Source: Psychrobacter sp. DM4 (GTDB lineage: Bacteria; Pseudomonadota; Gammaproteobacteria; Pseudomonadales; Moraxellaceae). Taken from it: a DNA stretch of 32,000 nt. The notes below the pieces were generated by a model. It had not been told where the DNA came from, searched no databases, and was given only the letters and a program-made list of their open reading frames with translations. The position numbers and the translations under genes are program-made. Where the stretch lies: assembly GCF_051307035.1 (NCBI RefSeq), contig NZ_CP195536.1, positions 540,001 to 572,000 of the forward strand. The letters are read 5' to 3'. Of the stretch, positions 13,664 to 32,000 are shown piece by piece. Position 1 is the first letter of the stretch; each line of letters opens with the position of its first letter.

Positions 13664-14008
13664 TATTATTAATCTTATCGTTGTGAAAATATAAGTTGAT
13701 TGACTACATCAAATTATAGCATATACGCATAATTTATATAATTAACGCTGTACTAATGACTTTGATATAGATTTCAAAAGAAGCTTACTAATCAGATGTT
13801 TACAGTTGACTAGAAAGTCATCCTTTTGTAATCACTAAACCAGATTATCTGTTGAATGTTACGGAGTTTACAAGTAATGTAAGTATCACTATCAAATGGA
13901 TTGATAGTTGTTTTTGATACCCTATGTGCTATTTACTTTGTAAATGGTTGTACTTTGAATAGGCCAGTACAAAAACTACCGTCCCGTCCCAACGACAAGG
14001 AAGTTGCT

Positions 14009-15091: not shown

Positions 15092-15139
15092 TAGCGTCAC
15101 AAGCAGACTATCGCTTTGAGTCTACTGGTACGATATAGA

Positions 15140-15172
15140 ATCAGGGTCAACTCAGTTGACCCTGATTTTTTT
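15140..15172 (+). terminator. Rho-independent terminator/attenuator between lipase and foldase genes
   Basis: aTCAGGGTCAACtcagTTGACCCTGAttttttt, with an 11-12 bp perfect stem and a T7 tail. Confidence 0.8.
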
Positions 15173-15349
15173 ACATTAAATATCTACGCCTATTTATCTT
15201 ACTTTTTGAATTTGGGTTGTACGCTTGATACTACCTTACCGTCATGATAGTTACAGTAAATTCAGTGTCGCAAGTACGCAAGTCACTATTATATTTCCTA
15301 TAATTTAGTACTGTAATTGACCTAATTTATACAATAAGGCATCTTAATT

Positions 15350-17034: not shown

Positions 17035-17520
17035 ATGAATAGTTTAACTAAAATCCTTATGGCAAGTACCTTTGCGGCTGGCATGTTAGCAGGGTGTCAA
17101 ACCATGTCAAACGTCAGCGCGCCGATGGCTCAGCCTATCACATCAAATACTCTACAAGCTTATAATTGGCAGCTTGTTGATGCCAAACGTGCAAATGGTG
17201 AGCAAGTGTCCCAGCTGTTTTACAATTCAGCCAAACCCTTAACCTTGAGCTTCTTTAAAAATGATGGCACCGATCGCGTCACCTTTATGAATACTTGTAA
17301 TAATATGGGTGCTGAATACAAGGTCGTAAACAGTAATGTTGAGTATGGCAATATAATAAGTACTTTGATGGCTTGTCCTGAGCCTCAAGCGAGCTTTGAT
17401 ACCGCAGCGATGGCAATAGTACAAGGAAAATATAGCATTAATAAGAATGCCGATAATCTACCTATCTTGACGATTCGCAATAACGATCAAGTGGCTTATT
17501 TTAAAGCGGTCTCAAAATAA
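17035..17520 (+). CDS. META domain (HslJ-like) lipoprotein
   Basis: Lipobox 'MLAGCQ'. META-like blocks 'W.L........G' and 'NTCNNMGAEY', with total size around 160 aa. AGGAG RBS before the ATG. Confidence 0.7.
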   Translation: MNSLTKILMASTFAAGMLAGCQTMSNVSAPMAQPITSNTLQAYNWQLVDAKRANGEQVSQLFYNSAKPLTLSFFKNDGTDRVTFMNTCNNMGAEYKVVNSNVEYGNIISTLMACPEPQASFDTAAMAIVQGKYSINKNADNLPILTIRNNDQVAYFKAVSK

Positions 17521-17555
17521 ACGTTGGAAAGAACCCAAAAAGCATCTTTAACAAT

Positions 17556-17587
17556 AACGCCTCGCTAGTAAGTGAGGCGTTTTTTTG
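17556..17587 (+). terminator. Rho-independent terminator after the META-domain gene
   Basis: ACGCCTC (17557-17563) pairs with GAGGCGT (17574-17580), followed by tttttt. Confidence 0.8.
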
Positions 17588-17621
17588 CAACAATTGCGTT
17601 ACACTAGAATCATTCATAGTC

Positions 17622-18593
17622 ATGATGACCCTCTACTGGATGCAATATATGCCAAAGCCGCACCTTTATAACAGCTTCAAGATACTGGCACTCACCGCCG
17701 CCGCTATTCTCAGTGGCTGCCAGACTCTCTCTAGTACAGCTCCCAAGACAACGTTAGATACCGGTACTAATAGTCCGCTTACCGCTGCCATGCCCGTGAT
17801 GGATCGCACAGGACGTATCGCTTATGTTGAAGAGCAAGGCGTAGGCGCTGCCAAAATATCGACGCTCTATAGTATTCGACCTGATGGTAGCGATCGGCAG
17901 CTGATAGAGCAGTTAAACGGCTATATTTATGCGCCAGCATGGTCAGCGGATGGTCGATTGCTCGCCTATAGCAAGCAAGCCATGCGCGAGCCGCCCAAGA
18001 TTTATATTTATGATCTTACTCAGCAAACGCGCAACTTAATCGTCAATAGCAATGGCAGTAATCTATCTGCTTCATTCTCGCCTGATGGTCAAAAGATGCT
18101 TTATACCTCGACAGTAGGCGGTAACGCTGATATCTACGAGCTATCATTGAACGACGGCAGTACGCGTCAATTGACAACGCTACCGAGTACCGAGGTACAA
18201 CCTAGCTACGCCGCAGACGGTAAGAGCTTCGTTTATGTCAGCGACAAAGTCCGTGCTGGTCGCCCGCGTATCTATCGTTATGACTTTGCGACTAGTAGCG
18301 CCTCCTTGATAGCGACCAATGGCTATGCAGCAAGTCCGCAGCTAAGCGGTGATGGTCAGCGTATGGCTTATCTCAATGGACGCAAAGCGGCAATCATGAC
18401 CCTCGCGACAAGGCGGGTTGTCGATCTTGCCGAAACGGGTCTCGATGAGCCTGCACGTCTGTCTCCTTCTGGGCAGTATGCGGTCTATCCTACGCGTAGC
18501 AGTTTAGTGATTGCCTCATTGACAGGTGGCAATAGTTACACGATTAGTAGTCAAGCAGGTACGGTTATACGTTCGCCGATTTGGGGTCGCTAG
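17622..18593 (+). CDS. TolB-like beta-propeller (PD40 / WD40-like repeat) lipoprotein
   Basis: Lipobox 'LSGCQ'. Repeated PD40-type units: 'PAWSADGRLLAYS', 'ASFSPDGQKMLYTS', 'PSYAADGKSFVYVS', 'SPQLSGDGQRMAYL' and 'RLSPSGQYAVY'. The true start is probably an internal Met (MQYMPK or MPKPH). Confidence 0.75.
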   Translation: MMTLYWMQYMPKPHLYNSFKILALTAAAILSGCQTLSSTAPKTTLDTGTNSPLTAAMPVMDRTGRIAYVEEQGVGAAKISTLYSIRPDGSDRQLIEQLNGYIYAPAWSADGRLLAYSKQAMREPPKIYIYDLTQQTRNLIVNSNGSNLSASFSPDGQKMLYTSTVGGNADIYELSLNDGSTRQLTTLPSTEVQPSYAADGKSFVYVSDKVRAGRPRIYRYDFATSSASLIATNGYAASPQLSGDGQRMAYLNGRKAAIMTLATRRVVDLAETGLDEPARLSPSGQYAVYPTRSSLVIASLTGGNSYTISSQAGTVIRSPIWGR

Positions 18594-18855: not shown

Positions 18856-19515
18856 ATGCAAGACAATTTTTTGATATTCATCACCAAAATCAGCCTATAC
18901 CCGACGATTGTCTTTACAGGTTTAGTCATGTTTGTCACTCTGTATTGGCTCGTGTCTTTATTGGGCATGGTGGATATGGATGCAATAGATGTGGGTGAAA
19001 CTGGTGATGTCTCTGACTTATCCTCGGTAGGATTCTTCTCAGGGTTACTGCTGAAGTTCGGCCTATACGGTGTGCCGCTCATTATTATCTTAACGCTCGT
19101 AAGCTTGATCGGTTGGTTACTGAGCTACGTTTACACAAGCTTGCTACATCAGTATTTTAGTTCAGGTCTCTTGTACTGGGTATTTGGTACAGGCGCATTG
19201 CTATTTGTGCTGGTAGTAGCCCTGTGGCTCACTGGCATTATTATCGCTCCGATTCGCAAAAACATTGCCAAAATCCCCAAGCGCAATGCTAGTAGTAATA
19301 TCGGTAAGATCGCCGTTGTACGTACGCTTAGCGTCACTGATAAACATGGTGAGGCTGAGCTAAATGATGGCGGCGCAGGACTGATACTCAAGATTCGTCC
19401 TGACATCAATGAGCATGGGTACTCGCTCAAACAGGGCGACAAGGTGTTATTGGTTGAGTATCTAGAGCATGCTAATACTTACCGAGTCGAGCGGGTTGAG
19501 GACAACTTACGCTAA
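18856..19515 (+). CDS. YqiJ-like / NfeD-like membrane protein (polytopic N-terminus, C-terminal OB-fold)
   Basis: Four hydrophobic segments followed by 'GKIAVVRTLSVTDKHGEAELNDGGAGLILKIR......L.QGDKVLLVEY', the NfeD-type OB-fold pattern. It sits directly upstream of a flotillin gene, as in E. coli yqiJ-yqiK. Confidence 0.7.
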   Translation: MQDNFLIFITKISLYPTIVFTGLVMFVTLYWLVSLLGMVDMDAIDVGETGDVSDLSSVGFFSGLLLKFGLYGVPLIIILTLVSLIGWLLSYVYTSLLHQYFSSGLLYWVFGTGALLFVLVVALWLTGIIIAPIRKNIAKIPKRNASSNIGKIAVVRTLSVTDKHGEAELNDGGAGLILKIRPDINEHGYSLKQGDKVLLVEYLEHANTYRVERVEDNLR

Positions 19516-19633
19516 ACAACGACTAGCGAAACAATAGCTAGTCAAAAGAATACTAGCTCAAACGAGTAACACTTATCGTGATTGCGATTTTATTTTTATA
19601 GTGGCATAGCCTGTTTTAATTAGAGGAATGAAT

Positions 19634-21592
19634 ATGGACATACTTATTATCGTCGGCGTGGTTGTGGTGCTGGCGTTTGTTTTCATCATGGCAGCGCTTT
19701 TGATGCTCAAAGCTTTTTACGTCAAGGTCGAGCAGGGCAAAGCACTGATCATTAACGGCGTAAACAAAATCGCTGTGCGTTTTGATGGCGGTTTTGTTTG
19801 GCCGATCATCAACAAAAAAGAGCTCATGCGCATCTCGCTTATTACGTTAGAGGTCGATCGCCGCGGTAAAGAAGGACTGATCTGTGCCGACAACATGCGC
19901 GCCGATATTACCGTCGCCTTTTATTTAAGGGTAAATGAAACCGAAGAAGACGTGCTTAAAGTTGCCAAATCCGTGGGCGTTGAGCGTGCCTCAGATAAAG
20001 TGGCAGTAAACGAGTTATTCAATGCAAAGTTCTCTGAAGCACTAAAAACGGTTGGTAAGCAGATAGATTTTGTCAAATTATTTGAGAACCGTAGTGAGTT
20101 TCGCGACAGTATCGTCCAAGAAATCGGTAATGATCTTAACGGTTATGTCCTAGAAGATGTCGCGATCGATTATTTGGAGCAAACGCCAAAATCCTCACTG
20201 GACTCGAGCAATATCTTGGATGCTGAAGGTATCAAAAAGATCACTCAGCTCACGGCCATGCAAAACATCATTACCAATGAGCTTGAGCGTGACGAAGAGC
20301 TGGCGGTAAAGAAGAAAAACGTCGAAACCAGAGAGGCTATGCTGGAGCTTGAGCGTCAACAAGCCGATGCTGAAGCCAAACAACAACGTGAGATCTCTTC
20401 GGTAATTGCACGTGAGACTGCTGAAACCCGTAAGATTGAAGAAGAAGAACGCAAAAAGTCTGAAACGGCGATCATTGTGGTTGAGCAGGACTTGGCAGTA
20501 CAGCGCGAAAACCAACAGCGTGAAATCGAAGTCGCTGAACAAAATCGTATGCGCGCCGTTATCATCGAGCAAGAAAAGGTTACTCGAGCACAGGATTTAG
20601 AAATTGTCTCGCGTGAGCGTGAAGTCAACTTGCAACGAATTGAGGCTGAAAAAGCGATTGAGCTTGAGAAAAAAGAGATCGCCAATGTCATCCGTGAGCG
20701 TATCGTCGTCGACAAGTCAGTAGCGCAAGAAGAAGAGCGTATTAAAGAAGTACGCGAAGTCAGTGAAGCCGATCGCGACAAGCAAACGCGCGTGTTAGCA
20801 GCTGAGGCGGAAGCCGAAGAAGGCAAAGTGCGTCAAGTCAAAAAGGCGGAGGCAGAAGAGTTATCTGCTAAGCACAAAGCGGTTGAAATCATGACCCTTG
20901 CCAATGCCAATCTAGAAGCCGCTGCAAAAGACTCAGAGGCCAAGATAAAAATGGCTGAAGGCACCAAAGCGGAAGAATCAGCGCGCGGTTTTGCTGAAGC
21001 GGCTATTCAAGAAGCTAAAGCCAGCTCACTTGAAAAAGAAGGTCTTGCCAAAGCCAATATCATCAAAGCGACTGGACAAGCGCAAGCACAATCTGATCGT
21101 GAAATTGGTATGGCTGATGCCGAGATCATCGCGGTTCGCGGTGAGTCGAATGCCAAAGCTGAGCGTGAAGTTGGACTGGCCAAAGCCGAAGTTACGCGTG
21201 CGCACTTCCAAGCCGAAGCCGATGGTTTGGTCGAGAAGTTCAATGCGATGGGTAGCATGAGCACTGAGGCGCGCGAGCACGAAGAGTTCCGCATGGGACT
21301 TGAAACCGCGCTACAAGAAGCGATGGCCTCTATCCAAGCCGGTAAAGAGATCGCCAAAGAAAATGCTGAAGTGTTAGCAGTGGCGCTACAAAAAGCCAAA
21401 ATCGATATCGTCGGCGGGGAGGCGCATTTCTTTGATAACTTCGCCAAGTCACTATCTATCGGCAAAGCTATCGATGGCCTTGCAGGCAAGTCTGATACTT
21501 TGAGCGGTATTATCAATACGATGATGGCGAGTCAGTTGAGCGGTAAGACCAATAAGTCTAGTAACGACGATTCTGATAACAAGCCTGCTTGA
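19634..21592 (+). CDS. flotillin-family SPFH/band-7 protein (YqiK-like) with extended E/A/K/R-rich coiled coil
   Basis: N-terminal TM anchor 'ILIIVGVVVVLAFVFIMAALLML'. SPFH core 'YVKVEQGKALIINGV.....RFDGGFVWPIINK....ISL.TL.VDR.G..GLIC.DN.RADI.VAFY.RV'. This is followed by about 400 aa of Glu/Ala/Lys/Arg-rich helical repeats. The AGAGGA RBS is too close to the ATG at 19628, so I prefer the ATG at 19634. Confidence 0.85.
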   Translation: MDILIIVGVVVVLAFVFIMAALLMLKAFYVKVEQGKALIINGVNKIAVRFDGGFVWPIINKKELMRISLITLEVDRRGKEGLICADNMRADITVAFYLRVNETEEDVLKVAKSVGVERASDKVAVNELFNAKFSEALKTVGKQIDFVKLFENRSEFRDSIVQEIGNDLNGYVLEDVAIDYLEQTPKSSLDSSNILDAEGIKKITQLTAMQNIITNELERDEELAVKKKNVETREAMLELERQQADAEAKQQREISSVIARETAETRKIEEEERKKSETAIIVVEQDLAVQRENQQREIEVAEQNRMRAVIIEQEKVTRAQDLEIVSREREVNLQRIEAEKAIELEKKEIANVIRERIVVDKSVAQEEERIKEVREVSEADRDKQTRVLAAEAEAEEGKVRQVKKAEAEELSAKHKAVEIMTLANANLEAAAKDSEAKIKMAEGTKAEESARGFAEAAIQEAKASSLEKEGLAKANIIKATGQAQAQSDREIGMADAEIIAVRGESNAKAEREVGLAKAEVTRAHFQAEADGLVEKFNAMGSMSTEAREHEEFRMGLETALQEAMASIQAGKEIAKENAEVLAVALQKAKIDIVGGEAHFFDNFAKSLSIGKAIDGLAGKSDTLSGIINTMMASQLSGKTNKSSNDDSDNKPA

Positions 21593-21613
21593 TAAGGTTG
21601 TATCACTAAAAAT

Positions 21614-21638
21614 CTGCCGCTTAGGTGGCAGGTTTTTG
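21614..21638 (+). terminator. Rho-independent terminator after the flotillin gene
   Basis: CTGCCGC-ttag-GTGGCAG (7-bp stem with one G-U pair) followed by gtttttgg. Confidence 0.65.
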
Positions 21639-21717
21639 GTGATAGGTTGGGTCTTTGACACAGCCTACAAAAACAGCATATCAAAATTTATGACATGACA
21701 CAGTCTATGGTTTAGTC

Positions 21718-21843
21718 GTAGGGTGCATTCCATGCACCATGCACTATGATAGTGTGATAATAGACAGTCTTATTTAAAAGATTTTCCCTGCTTAACGCGG
21801 CAGTGCTTTTTCATGGCTTTTAGGTGCTTAAAAAGCACCCTAC
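21718..21843. repeat. REP doublet (REPIN/BIME-like): two inverted GTAG-headed palindromes
   Basis: Left unit: GTAG-GGTGCAT-tcc-ATGCACC (21718-21738). Right unit: GGTGCT-taaaa-AGCACC-CTAC (21823-21843), which is the reverse complement of GTAG-GGTGCT-ttta-AGCACC. The termini GTAGGGTGC and GCACCCTAC are a perfect 9-bp inverted repeat. Confidence 0.6.
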
Positions 21844-21939
21844 CTATAATTTATAAAACGTTTTTTTAGACTAGCCCAAACTTTATCTTATAAAATTATA
21901 ATAATTCTCTATTGCCCAATATAAAGTGGACGACTCATA

Positions 21940-24900
21940 ATGGCGGATACGCAAAACCCAAACCCTTCTCATAGCCCAGATAAGAACCAGCAAAAGACGC
22001 AAGCGGACCAAACCGATCAGGCCGTGGCTTCAGGTAATGCTTATGAGCTGATCAAAAAACGCCTAACTGAGCAGGGTAATCGCTTAGAGGTGCAAACGGC
22101 TACGTTGAACAACGCGCGCTTACAAGAGTTTGGCAGTACGCAAATGCAAGTCATTGCGCGTACCCGTATCCGTACCGAATACAACTGCGTCGCACAGGAT
22201 ATGGTACAAGTCGGCGACTACTTGCTGTTTGGCTATAATGTCTTTATGGGGCTCAAGCGCGCGAGCACTGTCAAAGATGTGCTATCGCTCTACCGCTTGA
22301 CCGAACCTAGTAATAAAAGCAATGCTCAAGTTAGCGTTGATGACAACAGCAGTAATGCAGCCACTGATACGGCCGGAACCTTTACACAAGTTAAGTCTAC
22401 CGCGAGCAGGGACAATGATTATCAATTAGAAGAAGTTGATTTGGCGGGTACGTTTTTGGCGCAAGATAATTTTGTGCAAGACTTTAATGAGCTGTATCGC
22501 TATTACAAACAAACCCGTCTCATTCAAATAACGGTCAAAGACAGCAAACTACTACTAGCGTTTCAGATTGGCGAGCGCATTACCGATATTCGAGTGTTTC
22601 GATTTGCACTAGACTTCAGCGAAGGTACTCCTGAGGCGGCGCGTGTCGCTTATGTAGACAACCGTGGCGAGCGCGATATCGAACTGCCTCCTGCTTATGA
22701 TTTTGATTGGATTGAGACTACCCGTGATCAGATGATCAACGGCAAGTATCCGCACATGAATATCTTGGATACAGTCTTTGTGGAGACCATAGGCGGTGAT
22801 CTGACTATCAAAATAGAAGACAACACCCAATCAGGGCAAGGGATCTATAGCGAGTCGGTGAGTGATAGTACTCAGTCGCTCACCGATGCTGAAATTCATT
22901 ATGCCAAAGTTGGCAGTTTAATACTGCTCAAAATCCTGCCTTACCGAGAGGACAATTACCGCTATTTTGTCTATAACACTCTGACCGAGACGGTATTACG
23001 CTTGGATGCTATTGGGCAATCTTGTGTGCAATTGCCTGAGGATCATGGCATTATTTTCCCAGGCGGTTACTACCTACAGACGGGCGAGTATAAGCTATTC
23101 GATAGTAGCAATGGCGATGGCAATACGAGCAGCAGTACTGGTAAGAGTCTAAAGTTTAAGCGCCGTATCGTCTCACCTAATGGTGAAGATGTGCTGTTTT
23201 TATTTTATGACAGAGACTTAGGAGTCACTGGGTTATTCCCTTATAACCTCATCAAAAAACAATTAGCAAACCCTATCTATTGTAATGGTATGGCACTGGC
23301 TGAAAACGGTCGCTTAGTACTGTTCAGCGCGCAAAGCGACGCCTCACGTATTCATCCAATGCAGATATGGCACACGCCTTACGCCTCACAAGAGTATGTC
23401 AGCGAGCTGCCAGAGAGCACTAGCTTTTATGGCAAGATTGGCAATAAGGAGCTAGTACGCGGTATCTCAGACCTATATAGCATCACCCGCCTCATTGATA
23501 ATCAAAGCGTCTCACAAAAACTCTATGAGGAACTCGCTGATAATACCAGTCGCCTATTCGACAACTATTATTGGTTGTCTGAGCCTGACTTAACTGAGAT
23601 TGCGGGGAGTATCAAGGAAGTCACTGCGACCGCTGAGCTGGTCATTGATGAATTTGCCAAAGTACAGAGCATCCAAAAGCAAACTCAAAACGCGCTAGCG
23701 GAAGCTGAAACCAAACAGAACGAAATCGTACGACAAATTAAAATCACGACCTTTGAGAGTGCGAGTGATTACGTCGATCAGTTATCAAATATCAGACGTC
23801 AAAAAGGCCATTTAGTCAGCTTAGAGGACTTGCGATATTTAGACGGCGAAAAACTAGAGACGCTACAAGGCCAGTTAGAAGACGCCGAAGCTAATCTCGC
23901 TGAGCAAACCGTGGTCTATTTAAGCGCAGATAAAGCGCTATCGAGTTACGATGAGCTATTAGTAGACGTCAACGAGCGCCTTGAGACGGCAGAGACCAAT
24001 AGCGAGCTAAAACCTGTACTGGAGCAAATAGACAATACCGCGCAGGGATTGGATTTGCTAACCGAATTGCTCGGCACTTTAGATGTCGCCGATGCTACCG
24101 TACGTACGCAAATTATCGATGATATCTCAGCTATTTATTCACGCCTCAATCAAAGCAAAGCCAAGCTTAACCATAAACGCAAAAACCTTGGTTCAGCTGA
24201 GGCAGTTGCCCAGTTTGGCGCGCAGTTCAAGCTCTTTACGCAGTCGATCGCCAATGCCTTGTCGATTGCCAATACTCCTGAGAAGTCCGATGAGCAAATG
24301 GCCAAGTTACTGGTGCAATTAGAGGAGCTGGAGAGTCAATTTGCGGATCCTGAGACCAATAGTGGCGATCAGTTCTTAGCTGATATTATCACCAAGCGCG
24401 AAGAGATTTACGATACCTTTGAGAACCATAAACAGCAACTGCTCGATACCCGTAACCGTAGAGCGCAGAACTTAGGCGATGGTGCACTACGGATGCTTGA
24501 GAGCATCAAAAAGCGTACCCAAAGTACCGGGGTTACCGGCTTTATCGAAGAGGAGGCGCTCAACACTTACTTTGCCTCTGATGGCCTAGTACAAAAAGTA
24601 CGCGGTATCGCCAAAAGCTTGCAAGAGATGGGCTTTAGCGTCAAAGCCGATGATATCAATGCGCGCCTAAAAGCCCTTCAAATTGAGAGTTATAAGAGCC
24701 TCAAAGACAAGTCCGACTTGTTCGAAGAGGGCGGTCAAATTATCAAACTAGGCAGACATCGTTTTTCTGTCAATACTCAGCCATTAGATTTGACCTTGCT
24801 CAGTCGCGGGCACAACGACGGTACACGCATTCTGAATTTACATCTAACGGGCACAGACTATTACGAAGTGCTCGACAATGCTGAATTAAACGCCTTGCGT

Positions 24901-27900
24901 CCCTTTTGGGATATGAACATCGCCTCAGAGTCCGACAAAGTTTATCGTGCTGAATATTTGGCCTATAGCATCATCGAGAGCGCCAAAAATAGCCAAGACT
25001 GTCTGACTGAGGCGCGTCTATATCAGGCTTATGACGACACCGCTAGCGCTCTTAATAGCAGCGTCAGTAATACAGGCAATATTGACGACAGCCCACTTGC
25101 TAAACTAGTCAAAGCTCATGCTACGCCGCGCTATCAACTTGGGTACGACAAAGGCATTCATGATCATGACGCCACACGGCTGCTGATGCAAATATTGCCA
25201 ACACTGCGCGATGCCGGACTGCTGATATATACCCCACAAGTACGGGCGCTCGCGCAAGTGTTTTATTGGCAACTGGCTATCGTAAGGGCGCTCGGTCTGA
25301 GCAGTCTTAAGCAATACGGCTATTATGATCAGTGGCTCGATGACGTGCTACTTATGCGTATCGACAACTGGACTGACAGAGCCATGACCGCCGAGCAGCT
25401 GCGCCGCACTCTAGGTAGTGACACCGCCAAGGCGTTGCTAGTGGAAGATATGACGCAAGTGATGCGCCGCTTTGTCGCCGCTTATAGCGATAATAGCATC
25501 ACCAGTACTAACGGCACTAATAAAGAAGATAGCAAGGCTAATACTACCTTTGATAAGGAGCTGGAGACTAGCGGCATCCACAACGCCAATATTTTTAAGC
25601 AAAGCTATGTGGCTTTAGCTTGTGAATATTTAGTTAGCGTCATGGGTCAAACTGCTGATAGTAATGCAAGCTTAAGTACAGATCTAAAATCTGCTGCAAG
25701 CAAAAGTATCAAATGGCAGACGAGCAAGCAAGCGCAGGACTTGTGCAAACAGTTAGTAGAGACAGTCAGTAAAACCAGTACTGACGTTAGTGCTTCTTCC
25801 GCTAGCAACAAGGCGGGTTTTGAGCAGCTCCAAGTCGCGGTAGGCAAACTTGGCTTTCAGCCTAAATCTGCTTATGAGTTATTAGCGACTTGGTTCCATG
25901 CGCTACTCGATAAAGCCTATGCCAATAGCAAAGATGCTAATGCTAATAGTGATAGCAATGAGCTTAGTGAAGAACAGCGCGCCGAGCGTGAGACTCAAAA
26001 CGTACGACGTCAGCAACACTTACAGAGCGGTCGTCATTATGTGCCTGAAGCTATCGCAATTATGCTCACCCAGTTCAATGATGCTCAGCGCGAAACTTTA
26101 GTGCAGCGTCTTATCGACTCGGGTGCTAGCTTTGAGAATGGGGCGGCAAACGCTTCATCACGCTTATCCTTTAGCTCGGCTTCTTCTTTAACTAGTAGTA
26201 ATAACCCGCTCAATCAAGTGCAAAGCTTTGAGCGCGGCACAGGTGAGGTCGCGCTTGAGATTCAAGTTGATAATTTGCTCGGCGAGCACGAGCGTATTCA
26301 CAGCCAGACGCTCAGCTTTGCACTTGATGACTTCTTAAGCCGCTTGCATCATCATGAAAGCCAAGTTATTCCTGCTTATAGACGCTATCTCGCTATGCGC
26401 TCCGAGATCTTGCATGAAGCCCGCGAGGCGCTACGACTGGACGAATTTATGCCGCGTCCATTGTCCTCCTTTGTGCGCAACCGTTTGATCAATGAGAGCT
26501 ATCTGCCGCTCATCGGTGATAACCTTGCCAAGCAAATGGGAACGGTCGGCGAAGATAAGCGTACTGATCTGATGGGTATCCTGATGATGATATCGCCGCC
26601 AGGGTACGGTAAAACGACCCTGATGGAATATGTAGCAAACCGTCTCGGTCTTATCTTTATGAAGATTAACTGTCCGTCACTCGGTCATGATGTGACCTCG
26701 TTAGATCCCGAAAAAGCACCCAATGCGACAGCGCGTGAAGAGCTAAATAAAATTAATCTTGCCTTTGAGATGGGCAATAATGTCATGCTCTACTTGGATG
26801 ATATCCAGCATACGCATGCTGAATTTTTGCAAAAATTTATCTCACTTGGCGATGGCACGCGCCGTATCGATGGCGTCTGGCAAGGCAAGACTAAAACCTA
26901 TGACATGCGCGGCAAAAAGTTCTGCGTGGTCATGGCAGGTAACCCATACACCGAAAGCGGTGAGGCCTTTAAAGTGCCTGATATGCTCGCTAACCGTGCT
27001 GATATTTACAATTTAGGCGATATCATGAGCGGTATGGAGGAGGTCTTTGCACTCAGCTATATCGAGAACTCGCTCACCTCAAACAAGGTCCTTGCGCCTC
27101 TTGCTAATCGCGATTTGGCAGACGTGCATCGTTTGATTAAGATGGCAAAGGCAGACAATCCTAGTCTAGCGCAAGTGCAAGCTAGCGAGCTGACCTATCC
27201 GTATAGCACCTCGGAGATTAACGAGATCATCGCTATTCTGCGCCATATGTTCACTGTGCAAAAGGTGATCCTTGACGTTAACCAAGCCTACATCGCCTCG
27301 GCATCGCAAGATGATAAATACCGTGTTGAGCCGATATTTAAGCTCCAAGGCAGTTATCGTAATATGAATAAGATGACCGAAAAACTATCAGCAGTCATGA
27401 ATGATAATGAGCTGAACCAATTAATAGACGATCACTATTTAGGTGAGTCGCAACTGTTGACCCAAGGCGCAGAAAGCAACTTGCTCAAACTTGCAGAGAT
27501 GCGCGGCGAGCTTGACGATGCCGAAGCTGAGCGCTGGGCGCAAATCAAAGCCGACTTTTTGCGTAATAAAGCGATGGGCGGGGAGGACGGCGACGTTGGC
27601 GCTCGTATCGTCGCGCAACTGGTCGATCTTGCCAGCGGCTTCAATGCTATCAGCAGTCAGTTTGATACTTACCTTAGTCAAAACGATCCTGAGCAAACAG
27701 CGCGTCTTAGAGAAGCATCAGAACAAACAAAACGAGACGCGCAGCTTGAATCACAAAAACTACTCGCCGACAGCGTTATCACGGGTTTTGTAGATAACGC
27801 CAAAGTCGTCAGCGACAGCATCGATAATGGCTTTGGGAAAAGTATGAATCAGCTCATGCAAATCTATAAGCATGACCACGATGCTGAGGTGGCAGAAGGT

Positions 27901-28203
27901 GAGTCCCTCAAGCAAAATCAAGAGATGCAAAAAGCACTCATGGTGCAATTGGTCAGCGCAGTTGAACAATTAGCGCAGCAAATGGCTCAAAGTCTATCGA
28001 GTGGTGCTGACAATCAAGCCTCGAACACCGATCTCACTGAGCAAACCGCGTTACTGGTAAATGTGCTCAAGCAAGCGCTAGAGCCACTCACCATGCGACT
28101 AGACGAAAAGCTCGCCCTCGATACCAGCACGGAGCAATCGGGCAAGCTCATCGTTAACAGTCTTAATCAACTTAACAAAATATTTGATGAGCACCGCTCA
28201 TAG
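21940..28203 (+). CDS. giant (2,087 aa) uncharacterised protein with beta-rich N-terminal region, long coiled-coil/helical middle and one MoxR/AAA_5-like AAA+ ATPase module
   Basis: Uninterrupted 6,264-nt ORF. Walker A 'SPPGYGKTT' (K1558, nt 26611-26613). Walker B 'VMLYLDDIQH' (D1620/D1621, nt 26797-26802). 'VVMAGNPY' has N1668 at the sensor-1 position. 'PDMLANRADIY' contains R1686. All other-frame ORFs inside it are short shadows. Confidence 0.85.
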   Translation: MADTQNPNPSHSPDKNQQKTQADQTDQAVASGNAYELIKKRLTEQGNRLEVQTATLNNARLQEFGSTQMQVIARTRIRTEYNCVAQDMVQVGDYLLFGYNVFMGLKRASTVKDVLSLYRLTEPSNKSNAQVSVDDNSSNAATDTAGTFTQVKSTASRDNDYQLEEVDLAGTFLAQDNFVQDFNELYRYYKQTRLIQITVKDSKLLLAFQIGERITDIRVFRFALDFSEGTPEAARVAYVDNRGERDIELPPAYDFDWIETTRDQMINGKYPHMNILDTVFVETIGGDLTIKIEDNTQSGQGIYSESVSDSTQSLTDAEIHYAKVGSLILLKILPYREDNYRYFVYNTLTETVLRLDAIGQSCVQLPEDHGIIFPGGYYLQTGEYKLFDSSNGDGNTSSSTGKSLKFKRRIVSPNGEDVLFLFYDRDLGVTGLFPYNLIKKQLANPIYCNGMALAENGRLVLFSAQSDASRIHPMQIWHTPYASQEYVSELPESTSFYGKIGNKELVRGISDLYSITRLIDNQSVSQKLYEELADNTSRLFDNYYWLSEPDLTEIAGSIKEVTATAELVIDEFAKVQSIQKQTQNALAEAETKQNEIVRQIKITTFESASDYVDQLSNIRRQKGHLVSLEDLRYLDGEKLETLQGQLEDAEANLAEQTVVYLSADKALSSYDELLVDVNERLETAETNSELKPVLEQIDNTAQGLDLLTELLGTLDVADATVRTQIIDDISAIYSRLNQSKAKLNHKRKNLGSAEAVAQFGAQFKLFTQSIANALSIANTPEKSDEQMAKLLVQLEELESQFADPETNSGDQFLADIITKREEIYDTFENHKQQLLDTRNRRAQNLGDGALRMLESIKKRTQSTGVTGFIEEEALNTYFASDGLVQKVRGIAKSLQEMGFSVKADDINARLKALQIESYKSLKDKSDLFEEGGQIIKLGRHRFSVNTQPLDLTLLSRGHNDGTRILNLHLTGTDYYEVLDNAELNALRPFWDMNIASESDKVYRAEYLAYSIIESAKNSQDCLTEARLYQAYDDTASALNSSVSNTGNIDDSPLAKLVKAHATPRYQLGYDKGIHDHDATRLLMQILPTLRDAGLLIYTPQVRALAQVFYWQLAIVRALGLSSLKQYGYYDQWLDDVLLMRIDNWTDRAMTAEQLRRTLGSDTAKALLVEDMTQVMRRFVAAYSDNSITSTNGTNKEDSKANTTFDKELETSGIHNANIFKQSYVALACEYLVSVMGQTADSNASLSTDLKSAASKSIKWQTSKQAQDLCKQLVETVSKTSTDVSASSASNKAGFEQLQVAVGKLGFQPKSAYELLATWFHALLDKAYANSKDANANSDSNELSEEQRAERETQNVRRQQHLQSGRHYVPEAIAIMLTQFNDAQRETLVQRLIDSGASFENGAANASSRLSFSSASSLTSSNNPLNQVQSFERGTGEVALEIQVDNLLGEHERIHSQTLSFALDDFLSRLHHHESQVIPAYRRYLAMRSEILHEAREALRLDEFMPRPLSSFVRNRLINESYLPLIGDNLAKQMGTVGEDKRTDLMGILMMISPPGYGKTTLMEYVANRLGLIFMKINCPSLGHDVTSLDPEKAPNATAREELNKINLAFEMGNNVMLYLDDIQHTHAEFLQKFISLGDGTRRIDGVWQGKTKTYDMRGKKFCVVMAGNPYTESGEAFKVPDMLANRADIYNLGDIMSGMEEVFALSYIENSLTSNKVLAPLANRDLADVHRLIKMAKADNPSLAQVQASELTYPYSTSEINEIIAILRHMFTVQKVILDVNQAYIASASQDDKYRVEPIFKLQGSYRNMNKMTEKLSAVMNDNELNQLIDDHYLGESQLLTQGAESNLLKLAEMRGELDDAEAERWAQIKADFLRNKAMGGEDGDVGARIVAQLVDLASGFNAISSQFDTYLSQNDPEQTARLREASEQTKRDAQLESQKLLADSVITGFVDNAKVVSDSIDNGFGKSMNQLMQIYKHDHDAEVAEGESLKQNQEMQKALMVQLVSAVEQLAQQMAQSLSSGADNQASNTDLTEQTALLVNVLKQALEPLTMRLDEKLALDTSTEQSGKLIVNSLNQLNKIFDEHRS

Positions 28204-28223
28204 AGTAGGGTACAAGGAAAACT

Positions 28224-28388
28224 ATGGCACACAAAAAAAAGAACGTCCGCAAAAAAGAGTGCCCCGTCTGTGAGCGCGAGTTTAGTTGGACTAAAAAGCT
28301 CGATAAAAACTGGGAGAGTATGGTCTATTGCTCAGATCAATGCCGCCGGGTTAAGACCTATGAGAATGTAGAACATAAGAAAGGATAA
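28224..28388 (+). CDS. DUF2256-type small zinc-ribbon protein (54 aa), copy 1; not in ORF track
   Basis: My translation: [54 protein letters not shown]. It has the CPVC...YCSxxC four-Cys pattern with a basic 'W.KK' core. AAGGAAA RBS. The ATG lies 20 nt after the giant-ORF stop. Confidence 0.7.
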
Positions 28389-28392
28389 AACC

Positions 28393-28539
28393 ATGGCACA
28401 TAAAAAGGAAAACCTACCGCAAAAAATCTGCCCTGTATGCCTGCGTCCTTTTACTTGGCGTAAGAAGTGGGAGAAGGATTGGGACAACGTTGTTTATTGT
28501 TCTGAGCGTTGTCGGCGGGGGAAGGATAAAGCGGATTGA
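28393..28539 (+). CDS. DUF2256-type small zinc-ribbon protein (48 aa), copy 2; not in ORF track
   Basis: My translation: [48 protein letters not shown]. It shows the same Cys pattern and about 26 of 44 aligned residues identical to copy 1. AAGGA RBS. It starts 4 nt after the copy 1 stop. Confidence 0.7.
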
Positions 28540-28616
28540 ATCAGAATTAGGATAAAAGAAGACCGCCACGTTTTCTAACCCAATGTTGCCAGAGGAGGAA
28601 GATAGAGGTGGTGGTG

Positions 28617-28637
28617 CTTCTTACATATAATTATAAA
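28617..28637. repeat. left copy of imperfect direct repeat bracketing the AT-rich island
   Basis: cttct-tacatataAttataaa (28617-28637) compared with cttct(atc)tacatataGttataaa (31393-31416). The 16-nt core matches at 15 of 16 positions, and both copies carry the shared 'cttct' prefix. Confidence 0.4.
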
Positions 28638-28671
28638 AAAAGTATAGTGAACGTAATAGCTTGCATGCTTA

Positions 28672-29682
28672 TTAAGCTATTTTTCTAATAAAATAGTCAT
28701 ATCTATCTTGAATATGATTTTCTTTGAAAGCTCCTTTAATAGATTGTCTCAAAAATACTTCTAAGTCCTTTTGCGTAAGAATCATAACTAATCCTGCTTG
28801 ATTTCTATTAGCTAGATTCGATAAATGATTAAAATAAGAGTTTTTAATCTCATCACCACGAAACACTATAATTCCGAATTTACCTAAAGTATCGTTTAAG
28901 TAATAACCCATTTGATGAAAATCGTCTGATTTTAATTCTGTATAGTTTTTACATTCCCAAACAATTTGGGTAGCACCATATTTATTGCGAATCATTTCCC
29001 AAAAACCATCTGTTGCTCTGTTAGATGCAACCCAGTCTCTAATACTAGAACCTTCATGAGTCCTTTCTGAAGGTTGAACATTGACTAAAGAGCGGAAAAA
29101 GCATAGTTTTATAATTTCGCCAGTAATATCTTCAAACTCTTTTGCTCCAGAAGTTCCTGTGGGAAGATCTTTAAGTCTTGCAAGGAGGTCTTCTAGAGTT
29201 ATTTTATAATCATCTAACTGAAAACTTTCGGGTATATCTTCTAATAATCCTTCGACCTTTAAACTAGTATCATCTTTCAAATCAGTAATAAGTATAGGCT
29301 GTAGATTTAAGGCTTTATGATAAGTTGGATGAATTTCGAAAATACTACTATTACCTATAGCAGGTTTTGCGTTTGATTCTTTTCCTGATTCCTTATATTG
29401 AACGGTCTTATTTCGTTGAATTCCAATAAAACCTATTCCATACATTATTTCGATAAACCTAAAAGGAGTTGCGTTTTCAAATAACCAGTCTTTACAATAT
29501 TTATTAATCATATCGTTAATCAAAAGCTTTTGAATGAAGTCTTCTATTGCGTTTAGCGTAAACTTGTTACCAAGTCCATAAAAATATTCTAATACAAAGC
29601 TAATATTAGGATAATTCTCAGCAAACTCATCACCTAAATCTTTAAGTCTGCTTGTGCTATATCTAATAGAAGCACTTTCCAA
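28672..29682 (-). CDS. PD-(D/E)xK (Mrr/restriction-endonuclease-like) nuclease-domain protein; probably the C-terminal part of a frameshifted NTPase-nuclease gene
   Basis: The C-terminal half has the order helix-E ('KEFEDITGEIIKLCF', E183), D ('SSIRDWVAS', D216) and ExK ('QIVWECKNY', E243/K245, nt 28948-28956). The ORF begins at a TTG with no SD and no ATG for 57 codons. It overlaps the upstream ORF by 49 nt. A sampled 60-nt line is about 30% G+C. Confidence 0.65.
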   Translation of the reverse strand: MESASIRYSTSRLKDLGDEFAENYPNISFVLEYFYGLGNKFTLNAIEDFIQKLLINDMINKYCKDWLFENATPFRFIEIMYGIGFIGIQRNKTVQYKESGKESNAKPAIGNSSIFEIHPTYHKALNLQPILITDLKDDTSLKVEGLLEDIPESFQLDDYKITLEDLLARLKDLPTGTSGAKEFEDITGEIIKLCFFRSLVNVQPSERTHEGSSIRDWVASNRATDGFWEMIRNKYGATQIVWECKNYTELKSDDFHQMGYYLNDTLGKFGIIVFRGDEIKNSYFNHLSNLANRNQAGLVMILTQKDLEVFLRQSIKGAFKENHIQDRYDYFIRKIA

Positions 29683-30719
29683 ATTTTAATTGTAATTTTG
29701 GGGTTTCCACTGTTTATAGCATTGTCTATTGCGTAACTACAGAGCATAAGAACATCTCTCGGTCTATGCTGACAAAGTGACATAACTTGTGTTTGCGTAT
29801 TGAAGTTGGAGTTAGTATCATCGAAAAAATAACTCCAAGCTTCACCACCTAGTTTTGGCTTTGTTGTGAAGGGTTTGACCAATCTACGTTCTACAAGTTC
29901 TATTAACTTTTTCTGAGACCAGTCTAGGAAAACAGAAGATGTTTCTAGTCTTGAAAATTCATTGTCCATGGCTCTAATTCTATCGTAAATATTTTCTCTT
30001 ATAAAAATTAAAGGTCTTATGAAGTCTGTTGTGGCTCTTAGTCTTACTGAAGCGTGCATCAAAGCCATTAAACAAATTATTGCTGATTCGGAACCATCCC
30101 AAGATTCATCAAGACGATCGATAACTATTATAAAGTTGAAACTATTATTGGTAGCTATATTATTAGCTTCTTTAGTTATTTCACTACTACGTTTTACTTG
30201 TCTTAGCCATAGCTTTGAATTCTCTTTCGTGTATGCTTCGAATATCTCATCTGTTAAATTTAGAACTCTTTGATCAAAATCACAATTCTCGATTAAACCG
30301 CGTTCGCGATTGATTTGTCCATATTTTTTGTCAAATTTAAATAAATTTTGATTAGTCCATGTTTGGATTACTTCATCAATCAAAGCTCTTTCCATAGAAC
30401 ACATTAGAGATTTAAATGGTCTTTGTCTTGTATCTAAAAAAGCTTCATGTTCCAAAGGTAGAGTAATCAAATCGAAGATTTGAGGAGCTAAATGGATTGT
30501 TCTCGGGAATTTGCGTTGAACCTCAAAGGTCAATGCTGTTTTACCAGCGCCACGACGTCCAATAAAAAAGCAATCAGTTGATTTTTCGTCTAAAGAACTA
30601 ATAGTAGAAGGTGTGGATACGAATAATGCGTGGTCCTTTCTTATGATATCGTATTCTGCAAAAGCCTCTCCTAATCTAACTTTAGTCAATGCATTTTTAG
30701 GTAATTGTACTTTTCCCAT
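29634..30719 (-). CDS. P-loop NTPase (AAA/STAND-like, Orc1/Cdc6-style lid); probably the N-terminal part of a frameshifted NTPase-nuclease gene
   Basis: Walker A 'GRRGAGKT' (G54-T61, K60). Walker B 'FNFIIVIDRLDESW' (D201, D204/E205). Downstream are 'IFIRENIYDRI' and the lid-like 'HRPRDVLMLCSYAIDNAINSGNPKITIK'. GGAGAG RBS lies 6 nt before the ATG at 30719. Confidence 0.7.
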   Translation of the reverse strand: MGKVQLPKNALTKVRLGEAFAEYDIIRKDHALFVSTPSTISSLDEKSTDCFFIGRRGAGKTALTFEVQRKFPRTIHLAPQIFDLITLPLEHEAFLDTRQRPFKSLMCSMERALIDEVIQTWTNQNLFKFDKKYGQINRERGLIENCDFDQRVLNLTDEIFEAYTKENSKLWLRQVKRSSEITKEANNIATNNSFNFIIVIDRLDESWDGSESAIICLMALMHASVRLRATTDFIRPLIFIRENIYDRIRAMDNEFSRLETSSVFLDWSQKKLIELVERRLVKPFTTKPKLGGEAWSYFFDDTNSNFNTQTQVMSLCQHRPRDVLMLCSYAIDNAINSGNPKITIKIWKVLLLDIAQADLKI

Positions 30720-30753
30720 AATGAACTCTCCAATATGTTTTTAACTAATATCA

Positions 30754-31149
30754 TTAAAACCAATCAACCACGACTAAACCTTCTACACGCTCAAACTCTT
30801 TAGTATTATGCGTCACCAAAGTAGCGTTATTAGCAAGAGCGCAGCCTGCTATTTGTATGTCATAAGGGCCGATAGGTTGACCTTGACGTTCAAGTGTCGC
30901 TCGAATATGTGCTGAAACCTCTGCTTCTTTACGACCAAATGGCATGACTTGAACTTGTTTTAAAAGAGTAGATAATTGACTCAAACGTTTATCAGGGCTA
31001 GTAGATTTTTGAATACCGACATTCAGCTCGTAAAGTACAACAGTAGGAATGATAATTTCATGCGGATCATAAGAGTAAAGGTGTGAGGCAACTTGCCCCA
31101 CACCTTTGAAAAAGTAAATTAGCGTATTTGTATCTAAAACATAGCTCAT
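30754..31149 (-). CDS. vapC: type II toxin VapC (PIN-domain ribonuclease)
   Basis: 131 aa. 'YVLDTNTLIY' (Asp6), 'VLYELNVG' (Glu), 'PYDIQIAGCAL' (Asp) and 'LVTHNTKEFERV' form the classic PIN acidic quartet. A 4-nt ATGA overlap joins it to the upstream antitoxin ORF. Confidence 0.88.
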   Translation of the reverse strand: MSYVLDTNTLIYFFKGVGQVASHLYSYDPHEIIIPTVVLYELNVGIQKSTSPDKRLSQLSTLLKQVQVMPFGRKEAEVSAHIRATLERQGQPIGPYDIQIAGCALANNATLVTHNTKEFERVEGLVVVDWF

Positions 31150-31382
31150 AGGGATTCACGCTCGGCGTCATTACCTTGAGTATCATGAATCTCATCCAAA
31201 CTTGGAAAATCAGCCCAACTACCAGCCAATGCTTTGACTTCTGGTGACCATCCTTGATGCTGTTTAACTTGTCGCTTAACAAACTGACTTAACCAGAGAT
31301 CAGGCGCTATGTTTTCAGAATTAGCCATTTGATAAACAATAGCTTCAACTTCTTCGTCTAGCGTTAAAGTAATTTGGCTCAT
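31146..31382 (-). CDS. vapB: type II antitoxin (VapB-like partner of VapC)
   Basis: 78-aa ORF that is translationally coupled (ATGA overlap) to the PIN toxin. GGAG RBS. A palindromic operator candidate lies in its promoter. The antitoxin fold class cannot be assigned from sequence by eye. Confidence 0.7.
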   Translation of the reverse strand: MSQITLTLDEEVEAIVYQMANSENIAPDLWLSQFVKRQVKQHQGWSPEVKALAGSWADFPSLDEIHDTQGNDAERESL

Positions 31383-31392
31383 CTTAGTTCTC

Positions 31393-31416
31393 CTTCTATC
31401 TACATATAGTTATAAA
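31393..31416. repeat. right copy of imperfect direct repeat bracketing the AT-rich island
   Basis: See the left copy at 28617-28637. Confidence 0.4.
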
Positions 31417-31422
31417 CTATAT
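31404..31422. promoter_or_regulatory. palindromic operator candidate in the vapBC promoter
   Basis: ATATAGTT-ata-AACTATAT, with perfect 8-bp arms. It lies 22-40 nt upstream of the vapB ATG and overlaps TATA-rich -10-like hexamers on the minus strand. Confidence 0.5.
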
Positions 31423-31475
31423 AGGGTTATATAGATAAACTCCATCATCTTTAATTCAGATAGATAAAAGCAAAA

Positions 31476-31507
31476 GCGGGATTGACTACTAAAGCAACCA
31501 ATCCCGC
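31476..31507 (-). terminator. Rho-independent terminator of metH (minus strand)
   Basis: GCGGGATTG (31476-31484) pairs with CAATCCCGC (31499-31507) in a 9-bp stem. On the minus strand the hairpin is followed by ttttgctttt. Confidence 0.75.
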
Positions 31508-31540: not shown

Positions 31541-32000
31541 CTACAAATTCGGATTCAACCACTTCTCAGCCGTCTTCATATCCCAACCTTTACGCTCAGC
31601 ATAACTCTCTAACTGGTCAGTGCTGATTTTACCGACGTTAAAGTATTCACTATCAGGGTGCGAGTAATAGAATCCGCTGACCGATGACGCAGGCCACATC
31701 GCATAGCTTTCGGTCAACGTCGTACCGATCGCCTCAACCGTACCGAGCCAGTCGAACAGCTTACCTTTTTCCGTATGCTCAGGACAGGCAGGGTAGCCAG
31801 GAGCGGGGCGGATGCCAACGTATTTCTCTTTAATCATCTCATCATTAGTGAGCGACTCAGTCGGCTGATAACCCCAGTACTCTTTACGGATGAGCTCGTG
31901 TAGATGTTCAGCGAATGCTTCAGCGAGACGATCGGAGAGGGCTTGTACCATGATAGCGTTGTAGTCATCACCTGCCGCTTTATACTTCTCAGCGAGCGCT
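31541..32000 (-). CDS. metH: cobalamin-dependent methionine synthase MetH, C-terminal (AdoMet-binding reactivation domain) part; 5' end outside the window
   Basis: The frame stays open to the window edge: '...[43 protein letters not shown]...[17 protein letters not shown]...[20 protein letters not shown]...WLNPNL*'. This is nearly collinear with the E. coli MetH C-terminus as I remember it. Confidence 0.93.

Follow-up and report, generated by a model that had tools for sequence, protein, structure and literature searches.

A giant ATPase gene behind a flotillin gene pair

We analyzed a stretch of 32,000 nucleotides (nt) from the chromosome of Psychrobacter sp. DM4 (contig NZ_CP195536.1, positions 540,001 to 572,000), hereafter called the window. 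Its longest open reading frame (ORF), already singled out by a first-pass annotation made from the sequence alone and confirmed by the ORF list, lies at 21940-28203 on the + strand. It comprises 2,087 codons from an ATG start, and its product of 2,087 amino acids (aa), labelled "DNA repair ATPase" at NCBI, is an AAA+ ATPase of the DUF3686 family, hereafter the ATPase. Two genes of the same strand precede it. The first (18856-19515) encodes a YqiJ/DUF1449-like membrane protein of 219 aa with hydrophobic segments, which matches E. coli YqiJ at E 2e-5 and, by our reading of its sequence, carries a putative NfeD-like soluble C-terminal domain. The second (19628-21592) encodes a YqiK-type flotillin of 654 aa with an N-terminal membrane anchor, an SPFH domain, an E/A-rich coiled coil and a flotillin C-terminus (28% identity to E. 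coli YqiK, E 4e-37). The locus is a conserved three-gene membrane module in which the giant AAA+ ATPase is the third component.

The ATPase ORF is not a chimera, an alternative raised by the first-pass annotation. A protein encoded on a 2.84-Mb contig, "DNA repair ATPase [Psychrobacter sp. DM4]", matches its product at 100% identity from end to end, and colinearity extends to over 100 Psychrobacter clusters (identities of 79-91%) and, in other phyla, to homologs of ~1,600-1,900 aa. The start context, ATGGC, is unchanged in four other Psychrobacter loci. The mean Kyte-Doolittle hydropathy over 19 residues never exceeds 1.22 in the ATPase, as against peaks of 2.8-3.3 in the two upstream membrane proteins, so the ATPase has no transmembrane segment; the absence of such segments and of a signal peptide had also been read from the translation.

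To assess gene linkage, we used tblastn with the two upstream proteins of the window and their counterparts from three plasmids on the 75 ATPase loci with 3 kb or more of upstream sequence. The order YqiJ-like gene, flotillin gene, ATPase gene on one strand is kept in 74 of them, across Gamma-, Beta- and Zetaproteobacteria, Myxococcota, Actinomycetota, Bacteroidota and a Clostridia metagenome-assembled genome (MAG). In the single exception (locus L082) the flotillin gene is present with just 857 nt of sequence beyond it. The flotillin and ATPase genes are separated by a median of 132 nt, and by no more than 200 nt in 52 of the 75 loci. A flotillin connection, which had been no more than hinted at in the first reading, is therefore near-absolute at the level of gene neighborhood. 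This linkage is our strongest evidence: being encoded after a gene pair for a flotillin membrane scaffold, the ATPase most likely acts at the cell membrane and not, as its database label has it, in DNA repair.

The upstream pair is homologous, in the same order and orientation, to yqiJ-yqiK of E. coli and to SO1376-SO1377 of Shewanella (DUF1449 plus COG2268). Unlike in the window, no ATPase gene follows yqiK in E. coli K-12, and for Shewanella a rho-independent terminator was reported after SO1377, in a description confined to the unit of two genes (PMC1468410). The phenotypes known for systems of the YqiJ-YqiK type concern the flotillin (iron metabolism, H2O2 sensitivity), and none concerns the ATPase. 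The window flotillin has no match in Pfam or NCBIfam even at E <=10, and its ortholog on plasmid pQBR103 matches Pfam Band_7 at E 9e-11; the flotillins linked to the ATPase seem to form a divergent subfamily missed by current models.

Clustering of all ORFs flanking the ATPase loci revealed further recurrent neighbors. A gene for PspA occupies position -3 in 24 loci and one for DUF2170 (YjfI, a CesT/Tir-like chaperone) position -4 in 21; linkage to PspA and CesT/Tir is thus frequent, in about one third of the loci. An HKD PLDc_2 (phospholipase-D-like) protein is encoded downstream in 11 loci (~15%), a rhomboid protein in 11 and a Zn-ribbon protein in 7; all three are absent from the window. 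These optional genes, found 3' of the ATPase gene in other taxa (for instance at L007:15963-16670, L009:16868-17425 and L001:430-987), code for a phospholipase-D/Nuc-like HKD protein with a helical N-terminal extension, a TFIIB-type Zn-ribbon protein and a rhomboid protease.

An operon of this kind was described by comparative genomics by Ravi et al. 2024 (PMC11237479), who proposed a role in sub-membrane dynamics. Their ATPase has the same propeller, coiled coil and AAA+ domain as ours, the YqiJ-like and flotillin genes stand in the same order, and the same Pfam family recurs in the loci that we examined, as in Hymenobacter (L003), where the order is Tir-PspA-DUF1449-flotillin-ATPase. Their Table S3 lists the same gene order in Dokdonia donghaensis. 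The window holds an abbreviated operon of three genes, without the CesT/Tir-PspA dyad upstream, and its ATPase is ~400 aa longer; abbreviated operons lacking PspA were also noted by Ravi et al.

Family membership and domain architecture

The first-pass annotation had found no recognisable family for the protein. This view has to be abandoned. Pfam DUF3686 (PF12458, "ATPase involved in DNA repair") matches aa 49-544 over profile positions 2-448 of 448, with E 2e-187 and 623.6 bits against a cut-off of 25. It is joined by DUF7902 at aa 665-749 (E 2e-26, 92.5 bits against 26) and, in the C-terminal part, by the generic models AAA at aa 1549-1625 (E 1.3e-06, 29.3 bits against 21.2) and AAA_5 at aa 1548-1671 (E 1e-06, 29.2 bits against 22). 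Six distant compact homologs display the same Pfam architecture and nothing further, and the ATPase is colinear over its full length with the other members of a 38-member family alignment. A word-indexed search returned more than 5,400 homologs, and an exhaustive search of 1.84 billion cluster representatives with residues 40-760 gave 826 matches at E <=1e-3, 254 of them at E <=1e-30, the full-length proteins typically measuring 1,590-1,930 aa. In a scan of one genome per species, the gene was found in at least 588 species. It occurs in many named Psychrobacter species and also on large plasmids, namely Pseudomonas pQBR103, a linear Streptomyces plasmid, and plasmids of Hymenobacter and Deinococcus (the last by tblastn). 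Our results indicate that the ATPase is a member of a widespread, named and experimentally unstudied family, DUF3686, and not a new kind of protein.

The related claim, that no characterised family of known function accommodates the protein, is borne out. NCBIfam contains no model that matches better than E 0.02. Searches of PDB sequences, by the single sequence and by the family profile alike, yielded no solved relative, only P-loop-level matches (Rix7, p97, RuvB, NVL) and coiled-coil noise. Neither the ATPase nor the flotillin nor the YqiJ-like protein belongs to a family of PADLOC-DB 2.0 at E <=0.01, and Rfam has nothing anywhere in the window. Our literature search found no mention of DUF3686/PF12458 and, besides Ravi et al. 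2024, nothing on such an ATPase together with flotillin, SPFH proteins or PspA; a survey of SPFH proteins in P. aeruginosa (PMC13086221) does not mention the ATPase.

Domain boundaries were obtained from two AlphaFold2 models built on 85-sequence alignments, one of residues 1-1110 (predicted local distance difference test, pLDDT, of 79) and one of residues 900-2087 (pLDDT 80, predicted TM-score 0.69). Conservation was read from these alignments and from the 38-member alignment, and occupancy was computed among 36 non-Psychrobacter members of the family. All coordinates that follow are on the + strand. A disordered Q/N/D-rich tail (aa 1-15) precedes two predicted helices, residues 16-31 and 34-64 (aa 16-64, 21985-22131), which contain the conserved residues R41, L42, N57, R60 and F64 and correspond to the "N-terminal coiled coil" of Ravi et al. 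Next comes a predicted seven-bladed beta-propeller (aa 70-478, 22147-23373) that forms the core of DUF3686 and is supported by AlphaFold2, Foldseek and Pfam. It is made of ~28 strands in 7 groups of 4, with pLDDT values mostly of 80-93, and holds a disordered low-complexity insert (aa 123-158) that is not found in other genera. A propeller-like beta domain had indeed been suspected here from beta-strand-like peptides, all of which we located: DIRVFRFALDF at residues 216-226, GDLTIKIEDN at 286-295, YRYFVYNTLTETVLRLD at 340-356, EDVLFLFYDRDLGVTGLF at 416-433 and NGRLVLFSAQSD at 456-467. Foldseek comparison of the N-terminal model with the PDB returned the clathrin terminal domain and linker, WD40 and other propellers, and propeller-plus-helical proteins (probabilities 0.9-1.0, E 1e-5 to 1e-3). 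Because the TM-scores of these matches are low (0.1-0.2), we take the resemblance to clathrin and the others as generic, and a protocoatomer/clathrin relationship was rejected on the same grounds.

The propeller is followed by a long helical arm of ~440 aa (aa 484-927, 23389-24720), predicted to contain several helices of more than 50 residues and including DUF7902 (aa 665-749, 23932-24186). The length of the arm is kept across the family, with an occupancy of ~1.0. A small conserved beta domain (aa 934-977, 24739-24870), with five strands in both models, bears the motif GGxxIKLGRHRFxVN and the invariant residues G938 and F942. It leads to a family-specific all-alpha middle domain (aa 1003-1430, 24946-26229) whose helices are predicted with pLDDT above 90 outside the inserts. 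Long helices followed by helical segments interrupted by S/N/A/T-rich linkers had been described from the translation, in agreement with the arm and the middle domain of the models. In Psychrobacter the S/N/A/T inserts of the middle domain fall at residues 1033-1048, 1114-1136, 1181-1213, 1239-1254, 1277-1288, 1332-1364 and 1379-1427.

The middle domain has no Pfam or PDB match, whether in the ATPase or in the compact homologs. It contains, at the start of a helix, the invariant residues H1074-D1075-x-D1077 within a G-x-H-D-x-D motif (aa 1072-1078, nt 25153-25173), and further invariant charged residues lie in the same region (E997, R1003, R1102 and H1450). The motif may be a metal-binding or catalytic site. 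We considered an HD-type phosphohydrolase site at H1074-D1075-x-D1077, and profile or structure support for the middle domain was not obtained.

A predicted three-stranded sheet (strands within 1431-1461) and a long helix (1462-1498) stand ahead of the motor (aa 1431-1498, 26230-26433), whose alpha/beta core spans aa 1515-1700 (26482-27039). Beyond the motor, the lid and a conserved C-terminal helical domain (aa 1701-1900, 27040-27639; pLDDT 85-95) include the invariant stretch QGSYRNMNK at 1803-1811, and a C-terminal helical extension (aa 1922-2087, 27703-28200) is modelled as long helices of low confidence (pLDDT 41-62). The first-pass annotation had assigned ~370 aa to a helical C-terminus. 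This part is helical in the model; only the ~200 aa of the lid and C-terminal domain are conserved, and residues 1922-2082 have an occupancy below 0.3 among the non-Psychrobacter members. Low-complexity inserts, with others rich in S/N/A/T/Q at residues 5-17, 123-156 and 391-400, and the C-terminal extension make the ATPase ~400 residues longer than those 36 members. The main inserts have pLDDT values below 50, and inserts and extension alike are common to other Psychrobacter species.

The AAA+ motor and the DNA repair label

The single AAA+ module of the ATPase is supported by Pfam AAA and AAA_5, by the topology of the AlphaFold2 model, by Foldseek and by hhalign. Its motifs are a Walker A of sequence SPPGYGKTT (1552-1560, with K1558), a Walker B of sequence VMLYLDD (D1620/D1621), the sensor-1 residue N1668 and the arginine R1686. 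All five residues sit where the first reading had placed them and are invariant in the 38-member and 85-member alignments. The motifs for nucleotide binding and hydrolysis are intact, and catalysis by this one module, as had been suggested, is plausible. In the model, a beta-hairpin (1642-1655) lies between helix alpha-3 and the sensor-1 strand, and helix alpha-2 carries no insert.

The type of AAA+ module is harder to name. By Foldseek E value the closest structures to the core are, in order, RuvB, Skd3, ClpA and ClpB-D2, and ClpC is matched as well, whereas the best target-normalised TM-scores (0.48-0.54) belong to the MoxR proteins CbbQ and NorQ. In hhalign runs against reference proteins of E. 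coli, a profile built from residues 1500-1900 of the family gave a probability of 96% for RuvB over 41 columns in the P-loop region only, 90.5% for the second nucleotide-binding domain (NBD2) of ClpB over 116 columns from Walker A to sensor 1, and 17.8% for the MoxR protein RavA over 22 columns; FtsH aligned over the P-loop only. The motor and ClpB NBD2 have in common the signature D[DE]-x2-HP(E/D)(F/V)...DG...G-x-(K/R)T-x-D-x-R...V-x-M-x2-N, and with the Hsp100/Clp D2 and RuvB modules the motor shares Walker A, the HP(E/D)(F/V) helix after Walker B, a DG-containing beta-hairpin and an in-register sensor-1 Asn, although all sequence matches beyond the P-loop are below curated cut-offs and the similarity is too weak for a family-level assignment. 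As the hhalign probabilities are high for ClpB NBD2 and RuvB and low for RavA, the best description of the motor, from sequence and model, is that of an AAA+ module with a pre-sensor-1 hairpin, closest to Clp-D2/RuvB, in which the ATP site is intact and the canonical substrate-gripping tyrosine is lacking.

The earlier assignment of a MoxR/AAA_5-like ATPase finds weak support. In common with RavA, CbbQ and NorQ, the ATPase has a GNP motif after the sensor-1 strand and an Arg ~18 residues on, and the AAA_5 match (29.2 bits) points the same way. The structural comparison is divided, with CbbQ and NorQ ahead by TM-score and RuvB and Clp ahead by E value. Against the assignment, the AAA model scores equally well, several members of the family do not reach the AAA_5 cut-off, the RavA alignment reaches only 18%, the ATPase matches no MoxR-specific Pfam model, and no VWA/MIDAS partner was found among the recurrent neighbors of the 75 loci or in the window.

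RuvB as the top Foldseek and hhalign match of the core, together with the words "DNA repair" in the Pfam description and the NCBI product name, could suggest that the databases are right and that the protein is a RuvB-like or SbcC/Rad50-like motor acting on DNA. We consider this highly improbable. The likeness to RuvB is confined to the P-loop, and the specific models score far below their cut-offs (RuvB_N 14.9 bits against 27, TIGR00635 13.9 bits against 299). Searches of Pfam, NCBIfam and the PDB found no SbcC, Rad50, SMC, DNA-binding or nuclease domain, the conserved neighbors encode membrane proteins and not repair factors, and our literature search found no paper backing the name. The label "DNA repair" on the family is unsupported; it was probably inherited from a COG0419-type annotation driven by coiled coils. 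A misleading annotation has in this way spread to thousands of database entries without support.

The resemblance to ClpB raises another explanation, that the ATPase is a Clp/Hsp100-like unfoldase or disaggregase devoted to protease-less quality control, which would extract or unfold damaged membrane or membrane-proximal proteins collected by the flotillin scaffold. ClpB NBD2 gives the best alignment of the core, which runs from Walker A through sensor 1 and includes the signature given above, Foldseek retrieves Skd3, ClpA, ClpB and ClpC, and FtsH with HflK/C provides a precedent for an SPFH complex paired with an AAA+ quality-control enzyme (PMC13086221). We nevertheless regard this explanation as unlikely. 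Compared with Hsp100/Clp D2 modules, the ATPase has DD in place of DE, lacks an aromatic residue at the position of the GYVG pore loop, would form a single AAA+ ring only, and has neither a ClpP-binding element nor an M-domain. The conserved neighborhood contains no partner protease or adaptor, and the conserved domains outside the motor, which exceed 1,400 residues in total, point to a dedicated partner over general substrates.

A proposed role in flotillin scaffold remodelling

We give roughly even chances to the interpretation that the ATPase is an ATP-driven remodeller of flotillin/PspA membrane scaffolds at the inner membrane. In this interpretation we infer a physical interaction, an oligomeric state, a substrate and a direction of remodelling as follows. 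The soluble ATPase would oligomerise through its single AAA+ domain, presumably as a hexamer given the AAA+ fold, and the propellers would project from the oligomer on the long helical arms. Beta-propellers are typical peptide- or partner-binding modules. In the ATPase, propeller and arm would recognise the partner: the propeller would dock on the flotillin/YqiJ scaffold, on the cytoplasmic side of the inner membrane, and also on PspA polymers in genomes that have them. ATP hydrolysis in the Clp-D2/RuvB-like motor would then drive the assembly, disassembly or turnover of the scaffold in membrane stress or repair.

In function, such a remodeller would resemble Vps4 in its action on ESCRT-III or FtsH in its work with HflK/C, the common element being an AAA+ enzyme with a genetic tie to a polymeric membrane scaffold. 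PspA is a relative of ESCRT-III, and flotillin and HflK/C are all SPFH proteins. The analogy is meant to be one of function only: unlike Vps4 and FtsH, the ATPase has no MIT domain, protease domain or transmembrane segment, and its core is unlike the classical clade. In B. subtilis, an SPFH-domain protein is reported to be needed for linking PspA to the membrane (PMC8581546).

Several observations weigh against a remodelling role. The invariant Walker B of the family reads DD and not DE, a variation that is tolerated in DnaA-type AAA+ proteins. The pore loop GYVG of ClpB falls on the non-aromatic and poorly conserved stretch "PNATAR" (family consensus AP-x-A-x-AR), and since the pore-loop aromatic is absent, a Vps4- or Clp-like threading of subunits is doubtful. 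PspA was not found in the window by tblastn, nor was Tir, and our literature search turned up no experimental work on any member of the DUF3686 family. In the window, a gap of 347 nt (21593-21939) parts the flotillin and ATPase genes, and a pattern scan of both strands located in it a terminator-like hairpin with a T-run (21614-21631). Because of this gap and hairpin, the two genes may be separately transcribed here. Finally, mobile cargo separates them in two other loci, L036 and L040, in which the ATPase must be independently expressed.

A similar hairpin and T-run occur 3' of the flotillin gene in loci L004, L005 and L017, the flotillin-ATPase spacer is long and poorly conserved in Psychrobacter, and in this genus the ATPase gene may be driven by a promoter of its own. 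The spacer 5' of the ATPase gene also contains a 21-nt inverted repeat, GTAGGGTGC...GCACCCTAC (21718-21738 and 21823-21843), whose arms are 81% complementary and lie 84 nt apart. The repeat motif recurs in Psychrobacter sp. TAE2020 (L006), but three other loci of the genus lack it; the repeat may represent a small mobile element, a REP-like element or an operator.

The foreign cargo between the flotillin and ATPase genes spans positions 6497-9938 in L036 (Lampropedia hyalina) and 8039-9939 in L040 (a Zetaproteobacteria MAG). By our reading of the sequences, it putatively encodes an alpha/beta hydrolase, a NYN-domain protein, a nucleotidyltransferase/HEPN toxin-antitoxin pair and two tandem Rpn/YhgA-like proteins. 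An additional conserved component between the two genes was rejected, as the inserts are unrelated mobile or toxin-antitoxin cargo, or spurious antisense ORFs of high-GC genomes.

The module is chromosomal in Psychrobacter, and its upstream context is syntenic in five genomes of the genus, beside a variable stretch between the ATPase gene and metH; for these reasons it looks vertically inherited and placed next to an insertion hotspot. The region from the ATPase gene to a metH fragment (28204-31500; fragment at 31541-31951) differs in every Psychrobacter genome compared and has the look of such a hotspot. In the window it contains a Sll1717-like ATPase and a PIN-domain toxin (30754-31149). The ORFs 29634-30719 and 28672-29682, on the - strand, overlap and match the N-terminal (1-345) and C-terminal (344-454) parts, respectively, of one NCBIfam model of the P-loop ATPase Sll1717; they also match the PADLOC candidates PDC-M28C and PDC-M36A, and the GC content of the stretch is 0.33-0.39. 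The pair resembles a single defence-candidate gene that a frameshift has split, or a fused variant. On the 5' side of the module (13901-16450 and 17035-18593) lie genes for a lipase (alpha/beta hydrolase) and the Lipase_chap chaperone dedicated to it, for a META-domain protein and for a beta-propeller protein with PD40. Their order is kept in most of the five genomes, the lipase or chaperone gene being absent or truncated in some, and no link between this set and the module is evident outside Psychrobacter.

This genomic setting bears on a further explanation, that the module is a conflict or anti-phage system in which flotillin and PspA would sense membrane damage, the ATPase would act as a switch, and an HKD nuclease/phospholipase, a rhomboid protease or a Zn-ribbon protein would be the effector in some genomes. 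A patchy distribution over several phyla with copies on plasmids, the HKD PLDc_2 gene 3' of the ATPase gene in 11 loci, the toxin-antitoxin and mobile cargo inside or beside the module, and the variable low-GC island with its Sll1717-family ATPase and PIN toxin directly 3' in the window would all fit such a system. However, PADLOC matches none of the three module proteins, and two scans of viral contigs, one with close and one with profile patterns, found no relatives. Putative effectors are encoded in just ~15% of the loci, and the same chromosomal context in five Psychrobacter genomes, with the presence of the ATPase in many named species, speaks for vertical inheritance and not for the turnover expected of a defence island. 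A conflict system is, in our opinion, quite improbable.

Remodelling of flotillin scaffolds remains the interpretation that we prefer, and it can be extended, with less confidence, to a bolder proposal. Bacterial flotillin assemblies could possibly have in the ATPase their first dedicated ATP-driven regulator. Its AAA+ ring would bear propeller-tipped helical arms, and Foldseek matches such a propeller-plus-helical layout, weakly, to clathrin heavy chain and to other coat or tether proteins. The ring with its arms would reshape, strip or assemble YqiK flotillin domes and hand damaged membrane to PspA/ESCRT-III. If true, this would amount to a coat-and-uncoating-like cycle at the bacterial inner membrane.

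The function of bacterial flotillins and the control of their assemblies are still debated, and to our knowledge no SPFH complex other than HflK/C, which is paired with FtsH, has a known enzymatic partner. For the window itself, our result is mainly a correct placement and not a discovery, since in 2024 comparative genomics had already drawn attention to the family and the operon. A giant AAA+ protein encoded beside YqiJ/YqiK-type pairs in at least 588 species, often near PspA, nonetheless offers an untouched handle on the flotillin question, and its linkage suggests that flotillin/PspA membrane maintenance includes an energy-consuming step.

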